Source: Escherichia coli
Lineage (GTDB): Bacteria > Pseudomonadota > Gammaproteobacteria > Enterobacterales > Enterobacteriaceae
Direction: 5' to 3' (one strand)
DNA length: 64,000 nt
Assembly: GCF_050920415.1 (NCBI RefSeq)
Contig: NZ_CP169309.1
Positions 50,959 to 51,218 of this stretch are shown piece after piece (position 1 is the stretch's first letter; each line of letters opens with the position of its first letter). The position numbers and the translations under genes were made by a program. The notes under the pieces were generated by a model. That model was not told where the DNA came from. It worked only from the letters and a program-made list of their open reading frames with translations, and made no database searches.

Positions 50959-50991
50959 TTTGTAAACCGTCCGGCACTCAATCGCCAAAAA

Positions 50992-51218
50992 GAAAAAAGC
51001 CAGCAGATAATCACTGCTGGCGTGGCGATTAACACCAATACTCAGTCACACATGATGTCCGCAAATCAGTAGTCAGAATGACTCCCCTCCCACTGCATCA
51101 GCTCTTCAAGCATGGTTAATCGTTGTGGGACGCTTAACCAACGCAACCAGCACAACTTCGCTGTCGCGGTAAAATAGTGCTGATAAAACTGACGCATGGG
51201 GCACCTCCTTGCTTCATC
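50992..51218 (-). ncRNA. sgrS: SgrS small RNA (glucose-phosphate stress)
   Basis: Minus strand from GATGAAGCAAGG.. (5' end at 51218), through the ptsG-pairing segment ..GTGTGACTGAGTATTGGTGT.., to terminator CCAGCAGTGATTATCTGCTGG plus U-run ending near 50992; divergent from sgrR. Confidence 0.88.
51066..51197 (-). CDS. sgrT: SgrT small protein encoded within SgrS
   Basis: 43-codon ORF MRQFYQHYFTATAKLCWLRWLSVPQRLTMLEELMQWEGSHSDY starting at ATG 51197 inside the SgrS 5' region. Confidence 0.85.
   Translation of the reverse strand: MRQFYQHYFTATAKLCWLRWLSVPQRLTMLEELMQWEGSHSDY

Follow-up and report, generated by a model that had tools for sequence, protein, structure and literature searches.

The hairpin between leuD and sgrS in this stretch of Escherichia coli DNA is an ordinary Rho-independent terminator of the small RNA SgrS, working in the SgrS direction only, and it lies just 33 bp from leuD because the lineage has lost setA. 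In the account that we prefer, and to which as a whole we give an even chance of being right, this one-way terminator of the setA-deletion allele would let leu transcripts read through. These would then be terminated by Rho and trimmed back to a stem-loop close to the end of leuD. The features concerned are collected in Table 1, and ‘the window’ is used below for the whole stretch of 64,000 nucleotides that was analysed.

Table 1. Coordinates of features at and around the leuD-sgrS junction, in positions of the window
Feature	Position	Strand	Basis or remark
Leu_leader RF00512	46084-46233		Rfam match
leuD, last gene of leuLABCD	50353-50958	+	Open reading frame list and annotation of the identical record NZ_CP169399.1; stop codon TAG
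Gap between leuD stop and SgrS 3' end	50959-50991		33 bp; holds the setA-deletion scar
CCGTCCGGCACT, putative surviving single arm of the REP-like palindrome that follows leuD in Citrobacter	50967-50978	+	Short similarity
Extended stem-loop in leu-sense RNA (predicted)	50980-51030	+	51 nt; -22.3 kcal/mol; no U-run after it
Inferred setA deletion junction	50983-50984, +/- 2 bp		Sequence comparison with Citrobacter
SgrS U-tail template	50987-50998	-	Minus strand TTTTTTCTTTTT; + strand AAAAAGAAAAAA
sgrS (SgrS sRNA, with sgrT inside)	50992-51218	-	RF00534, 228.9 bits; sgrT coding sequence from the identical record
SgrS Rho-independent terminator hairpin	50999-51021	-	8-bp stem, 6 GC pairs, 7-nt loop
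C-rich, G-poor untranslated stretch, candidate Rho loading (rut) zone	51020-51157	+	C/G 1.5-2.45; up to 17 YC dimers per 78 nt
Antisense ACACCAATACTCAG of the conserved SgrS seed CUGAGUAUUGGUGU	51032-51045	+	Conserved block in the Rfam alignment
sgrR	51286-52941	+	Co-oriented with leuD; open reading frame list and annotation of the identical record

A terminator for SgrS only

The identity of the parts is well defined. Bases 50300-51700 are 100% identical to E. coli MFDS1022581 (NZ_CP169399.1), where leuC, leuD, sgrT and sgrR are annotated. The minus-strand match to the SgrS family covers the full Rfam model (positions 1-232) at a score far above the gathering score of 37, and the divergent sgrR and embedded sgrT of the identical record fit membership of that family. 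The distance of 33 bp given in the original prediction agrees with the leuD stop codon at 50956-50958 and with the SgrS 3' end of the RF00534 match at 50992. That prediction had overlooked an outer inverted repeat around the terminator, the setA-deletion origin of the adjacency and the presence of sgrR downstream on the + strand. The orientation of sgrR is such that any leu read-through escaping termination would enter it in sense.

An inverted-repeat search of 50930-51120 found two repeats, the terminator stem, with arms GCCAGCAG (50999-51006) and CTGCTGGC (51014-51021), and an outer pair around that same stem. A consensus terminator scan called the SgrS hairpin on the minus strand, with the tail TTTTTTCTTT, and called none on the + strand from leuD to 51700. 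Terminators were also scored with our own re-implementation of a d'Aubenton-Carafa-style discriminant, which gave +40 for the minus-strand hairpin (-14.1 kcal/mol, with seven T in the first eight bases of its tail). Read on the + strand, the same stem (-13.6 kcal/mol) is followed by GTGGCGATT, and its tail GTGGCGATTAACACC has two T in eight and a discriminant of -49; after the outer stem the tail AACACCAATACTC has no T in eight and the discriminant falls to -74. A GC-rich stem-loop is therefore encountered from either side, but a U-run within 0-2 nt follows it in the SgrS direction only, and the A-tract 5' and U-tract 3' of one stem that mark a canonical bidirectional terminator are not both present. 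The original prediction had held that the SgrS terminator is the sole hairpin between leuD and sgrS, that its U-run lies on the minus strand alone and that the gap contains no terminator in the leuD direction, and each of these statements is borne out by the searches and scores. Intrinsic termination without a U-run should, by the established mechanism, be inefficient. Since nothing like an intrinsic terminator faces the leu operon, polymerases leaving leuD are expected to pass the hairpin.

The terminator stem is identical in Citrobacter, Salmonella and Enterobacter. The SgrS locus of K-12 (described in 2015, PMC4509938) is alike in the sRNA itself, in the position of the terminator and in having sgrR and leuD as neighbours. 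There, the Rho-independent terminator of SgrS is leaky and its U-tail doubles as an Hfq site (PMC4509938). The window differs from K-12 in having no setA, so that the terminator faces leuD over 33 bp and read-through has no gene downstream to express, and in having a stem of 8 bp with U6CU5 where K-12 has 7 bp with U8.

That leu transcripts meet no canonical terminator is nothing out of the ordinary for the end of an E. coli operon. Of the six convergent junctions in the window, five are without a canonical two-way terminator. The exception is yacH/lpdA (430-460), which has the A-tract, stem and T-tract (AAAAAAGCGGC...GCCGCTTTTTT), in contrast to leuD/sgrS with its U-run on the SgrS side alone. 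Strong hairpins with a T-run on neither side are present at aroP/ampE (9657-9681, -22 kcal/mol) and at hofC/guaC (15305-15328, -16.6 kcal/mol), and the yacG/mutT and thiQ/yabI junctions carry REP-type palindromes. (The hofC gene, 14101-15303, is annotated as a pseudogene with an internal stop in the identical record.) The leuD/sgrS locus would appear to be one more convergent pair that no two-way terminator insulates. Its peculiarity is that a buffer of 1.2 kb is gone and that the hairpin is followed directly by an sRNA gene.

Loss of setA in Escherichia

In K-12 the gene order is sgrR, sgrS, setA, leuD, and the 1.18-kb setA separates the SgrS terminator from leuD. A survey of one genome per species, using the conserved SgrS seed pattern together with tblastn searches with LeuD, SetA and SgrR, recovered sgrS by its seed pattern across Enterobacteriaceae. 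The order sgrS-setA-leuD was found in Citrobacter, Salmonella, Klebsiella, Raoultella, Enterobacter, Pluralibacter, Siccibacter and Superficieibacter, whereas in this one-genome-per-species sample the setA-less junction was restricted to Escherichia (E. albertii, E. whittamii, Escherichia sp. E1V33, the E. coli representative and the window), where all carriers have one common junction sequence. This distribution identifies the placement of setA between sgrS and leuD as ancestral and the window as a carrier of a single old deletion of about 1.2 kb. Among complete E. coli genomes, 2,141-2,162 of 5,426 have the contiguous leuD-sgrS junction, and in about 60% the BLAST query splits exactly at 50952 and 50993. 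Carriers of the setA-less allele include EC958/ST131, NC101, EPEC E2348/69, APEC O2:K1:H7, ST38 and O157:H7, and the gap and junction are nearly invariant both within E. coli and across the other Escherichia species. The adjacency is thus widespread; its parts are known, but in the literature searched it is not discussed together with sgrS, and searches for sgrS with leuD, with antisense in O157, and with setA and phylogroup returned no description of a leuD-sgrS overlap.

The scar can be read from both sides. On the SgrS strand, TTTTGGC is common to the junction and to the sgrS-setA spacer of C. amalonaticus, and GATT..GTGCCGGA(C/T)GG matches the setA stop and adjoining palindrome arm in C. 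braakii. The segment 50967-50978, which aligns with CCATCCGGCACT of C. braakii and with other Citrobacter sequences, is probably the lone remaining arm of the palindrome on the leuD side.

Two further suggestions about the deletion were considered. That the SgrS terminator was strengthened after setA was lost, from the 7-bp form of K-12 to 8 bp, is rejected: an 8-bp stem with TTTTTTC(G/T)TTT is the usual form where setA is present, in Citrobacter, Salmonella and Enterobacter, and it is K-12 that departs from it. That the deletion took away a canonical leuD terminator is only partly true. A strict hairpin and T-run follow leuD in five of 24 setA-containing loci from other taxa, a few more by eye have long-loop hairpins and then T5-6, and the K-12 leuD hairpin is marginal (tail TTTCC, discriminant +8). 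The deletion removed a palindrome and a spacer of 1.2 kb, and not necessarily a strong terminator.

The boundaries between presence and absence of setA are sharp: one falls within the final two codons of leuD and the other at the U-tail of SgrS (50952-50993; K-12 segment 1094-2352). The K-12-type allele also differs in the C-terminus of LeuD, which ends in ..FMN before the stop where that of the window ends in ..FMR, and in the small 3' hairpin and terminator of SgrS; both SgrS 3' variants are found in other genera too. In Escherichia sp. MOD1-EC7003, SetA is 99% identical to that of K-12. These allele differences and the close SetA match suggest that the K-12-type segment is either an old polymorphism or the product of recombinational exchange of the whole segment. 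Additional DNA lies between leuD and setA in C. portucalensis (about 3.5 kb, 6390-9902) and in Superficieibacter (about 1.7 kb, 4127-5867), so gain and loss of DNA have recurred at this junction. In about 15 of 2,156 genomes the leuD-sgrS junction itself is interrupted. In E. coli GF131 (NZ_CP172134.1; about 790-1500 of the compared segment), IS200C has entered the A/T tract that separates leuD from the terminator stem of SgrS, and SgrS keeps only six U before the foreign sequence.

Leu transcripts beyond the hairpin

Past the hairpin, leu-operon polymerases would go on to make RNA antisense to the 3' half of SgrS. The list of open reading frames holds no + strand frame of at least 30 aa in 50959-51264, leaving the leu-sense RNA untranslated for about 300 nt past leuD. 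Within the candidate rut zone, positions 51035-51112 are 35% C and 14% G, with a C/G ratio of 2.45 and 17 YC dimers, the 99th percentile for 78-nt stretches of the window being 2.25. Two features of Rho-dependent terminators, untranslated RNA of at least about 80 nt and a C-rich, G-poor region, are thus both found in the leu direction. The C-richness follows from the G-rich sense sequence of SgrS and gives no sign that termination has been selected for.

Because the leu-sense RNA is untranslated as well as C-rich and G-poor, Rho termination followed by trimming seems the likeliest outcome for leu transcripts. Rho would load on this RNA and terminate transcription no later than about the sgrS promoter and the start of sgrR, and exonucleases would trim the leu RNA to the stem-loop at 50980-51030, which would become the 3' end of the leu mRNA. 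A read-through product that is terminated by Rho and trimmed would not accumulate, so the steady-state level of anti-SgrS RNA should be low and any effect on SgrS small. Even so, the anti-seed sequence starts just 11 nt from the terminator stem, and 2 nt from the outer stem, and each polymerase that passes the hairpin would therefore make anti-seed RNA, at least transiently. Rho release typically takes place tens to hundreds of nucleotides past loading, which implies that nascent anti-seed RNA would still be made in every read-through event.

Expression data are available for a strain with the same arrangement: the leuD-sgrS junction of EPEC E2348/69 was checked in sequence and is the same as that of the window. 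In RNA-seq of this strain, leuD has a baseMean of 112 in activating medium against 8.6 in non-activating medium, a 13-fold difference, and leuA, leuB and leuC behave likewise (PMC8550237 Table S2). Under the same conditions sgrR goes from 48.5 to 41.9, a 1.16-fold change (PMC8550237 Table S2). A crude length-corrected estimate from these data, which come as baseMeans from two separate DESeq2 runs and for which constant sgrR promoter activity is assumed, puts the share of leu transcription that gets as far as sgrR at about 2-3% or less. Since sgrR does not track leuD, leu transcription must end, or its RNA be lost, somewhere in 50959-51286.

The stem-loop to which leu RNA would be trimmed is formed by the terminator stem together with the outer pair of 8-nt arms that encloses it, AATCGCCA (50980-50987) and TGGCGATT (51023-51030), which are 100% complementary. 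It is present in both the minimum free energy and the centroid structures of a 361-nt fold. We propose, from this predicted structure, that it could serve as a 3' stabiliser of the leu mRNA, of the kind that stops exonucleases. The outer repeat AATCGCCA/TGGCGATT was considered as a selected element, but may have arisen by chance where the deletion joined its flanks. Its left arm arises across the deletion junction, and an 8-mer inverted pair within 80 nt is not rare, about 0.2 being expected by chance in some 190 nt by our own estimate. In the E. albertii variant, AATCGTCA, a single observation, pairing is kept only in the + strand (leu-sense) RNA, by way of a U-G pair.

Both parts of this scheme have counterparts. 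Peters and colleagues (in 2012) and Dar and Sorek (in 2018) reportedly found that Rho-dependent 3' ends are trimmed to a stem-loop and that Rho suppresses antisense transcription. The leuD-sgrS junction is a candidate for the same mechanism and resembles such systems in having untranslated C-rich, G-poor RNA past the stop codon and a stable stem-loop upstream of it; it differs in that its rut-like composition is dictated by SgrS, conserved on the other strand. Another likeness is to overlapping 3' UTR antisense pairs and excludons, such as those of Listeria, which are recognized by mapped long overlapping transcripts and reciprocal expression. As there, the genes are convergent and one transcript may extend over the other, but the overlap at leuD-sgrS is a predicted one.

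Other outcomes and their consequences

Termination could in theory be achieved by the hairpin itself in the absence of a U-run, acting as a pause or roadblock with polymerases colliding between the convergent genes. A hairpin-forming element does lie between the two genes and is stable (-13.6 kcal/mol, or -22.3 kcal/mol in its extended form), and the aroP/ampE and hofC/guaC junctions of the window look alike. According to a preprint (bioRxiv 10.1101/2022.10.23.513370), the studies of Ju et al. (2019) and of Wang et al. (2022) report hundreds of E. coli convergent pairs that end at hairpins which are unlike intrinsic terminators and do not need Rho; the leuD-sgrS hairpin resembles these bidirectional terminators in being common to two convergent units. 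However, the collision model as set out there requires both units to be active, and sgrS is a stress-induced gene that is essentially silent without glucose-phosphate stress (PMC4509938), so that leu polymerases would meet no partner traffic in normal growth. The + strand tail GUGGCGAUU also forms a stable RNA:DNA hybrid. Collision at the hairpin is accordingly an unlikely source of the leu 3' end. If, instead, leu transcripts do pass, they may act on SgrS, as the original prediction proposed. Antisense read-through over sgrS/sgrT would lower SgrS by duplex formation and RNase III, by titration of the seed or by head-on interference with the promoter, and leucine limitation would dampen the glucose-phosphate stress response in setA-less strains. 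The lack of an intrinsic terminator in the leu direction, on which this idea was built, stands, and even a short read-through RNA would contain the anti-seed, the seed being the part of SgrS that pairs with ptsG. In leu-sense RNA, AAAAAGAAAAAA looks like an (ARN)4-type Hfq distal-face motif placed beside the anti-seed, and the arrangement is unchanged across Escherichia species, with no T-run having evolved. The regulatory effect found no support. The rut-like untranslated stretch follows the hairpin at once, sgrR does not follow leuD in EPEC, and no SgrS-leuD chimeras occur among the matches listed for EPEC RIL-seq and EHEC RNase E-CLASH, a weak negative as SgrS is poorly expressed there. An antisense RNA of low abundance and stability is unlikely to titrate SgrS, because sgrS is highly induced under stress, reaching very high levels only then, and read-through antisense in E. 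coli is pervasive and mostly non-functional. Coupling of this kind is speculative and, we think, quite improbable; interference of leu transcripts with SgrS is probably minor.

The main leak could, alternatively, run in the opposite direction, from sgrS into leuD. Read-through of the SgrS terminator is frequent in K-12, where it drives setA as a sgrS-setA co-transcript (PMC4509938, PMC6582626); here, it would be antisense to leuD, and glucose-phosphate stress would disturb leu expression. Neither the scan nor the scoring gave a minus-strand terminator past SgrS, and the first C-rich zone on this path is well inside leuD. The antisense-leuD RNA of 50845-50708 (minus strand) reaches a C/G ratio of 2.25, 150-280 nt past the SgrS 3' end, and by its composition is where Rho could first plausibly act on SgrS read-through RNA of the setA-less allele. 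Yet read-through becomes less frequent under the same stress that switches sgrS on (PMC4509938), and the K-12 leak was measured on the 7-bp stem with U8 and is not directly transferable to the 8-bp stem with U6CU5 of the window. As the main leak, reverse read-through is very unlikely, although it deserves the same attention as leu read-through.

Two other features of the region may be mentioned. The motif AAAAAGAAAAAA (50987-50998, + strand) sits in an internal loop of the extended hairpin. In or next to the terminator there are + strand sigma-70-like matches, at 50982-51011 and 51029-51056, each with nine of 12 consensus bases, and the region has three promoter-like hits against 0.8 +/- 0.9 in shuffles. 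If active, these matches would start antisense-sgrS transcription without the leu operon.

For the present, the analysis serves chiefly as a correction. The hairpin is a known terminator of ordinary one-way design, and its adjacency to leuD is explained by the deletion of setA. On the preferred account, of Rho termination and trimming, little would reach SgrS. A more far-reaching reading, to which we attach very little probability, concerns the setA-less strains: about 40% of E. coli (lineages of the B2, D and E types, among them ST131, EPEC E2348/69 and O157:H7) together with E. albertii and E. whittamii. In these, the old deletion would have made the 3' end of the leu mRNA a perfect SgrS anti-seed with an A-rich Hfq-type motif beside it. 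In leucine limitation, read-through RNA from leu or the polymerases that converge would then lower functional SgrS, and in sugar-phosphate stress SgrS read-through would lower leuD, a lineage-specific cross-talk of branched-chain amino-acid synthesis with sugar-phosphate stress that K-12 would not have. Should leu read-through affect SgrS, the work on SgrS in K-12 would not transfer fully to setA-less ST131, EPEC and O157:H7. If true, it would also mean that a simple deletion can create new antisense wiring between two units that, in K-12, are both buffered by setA.
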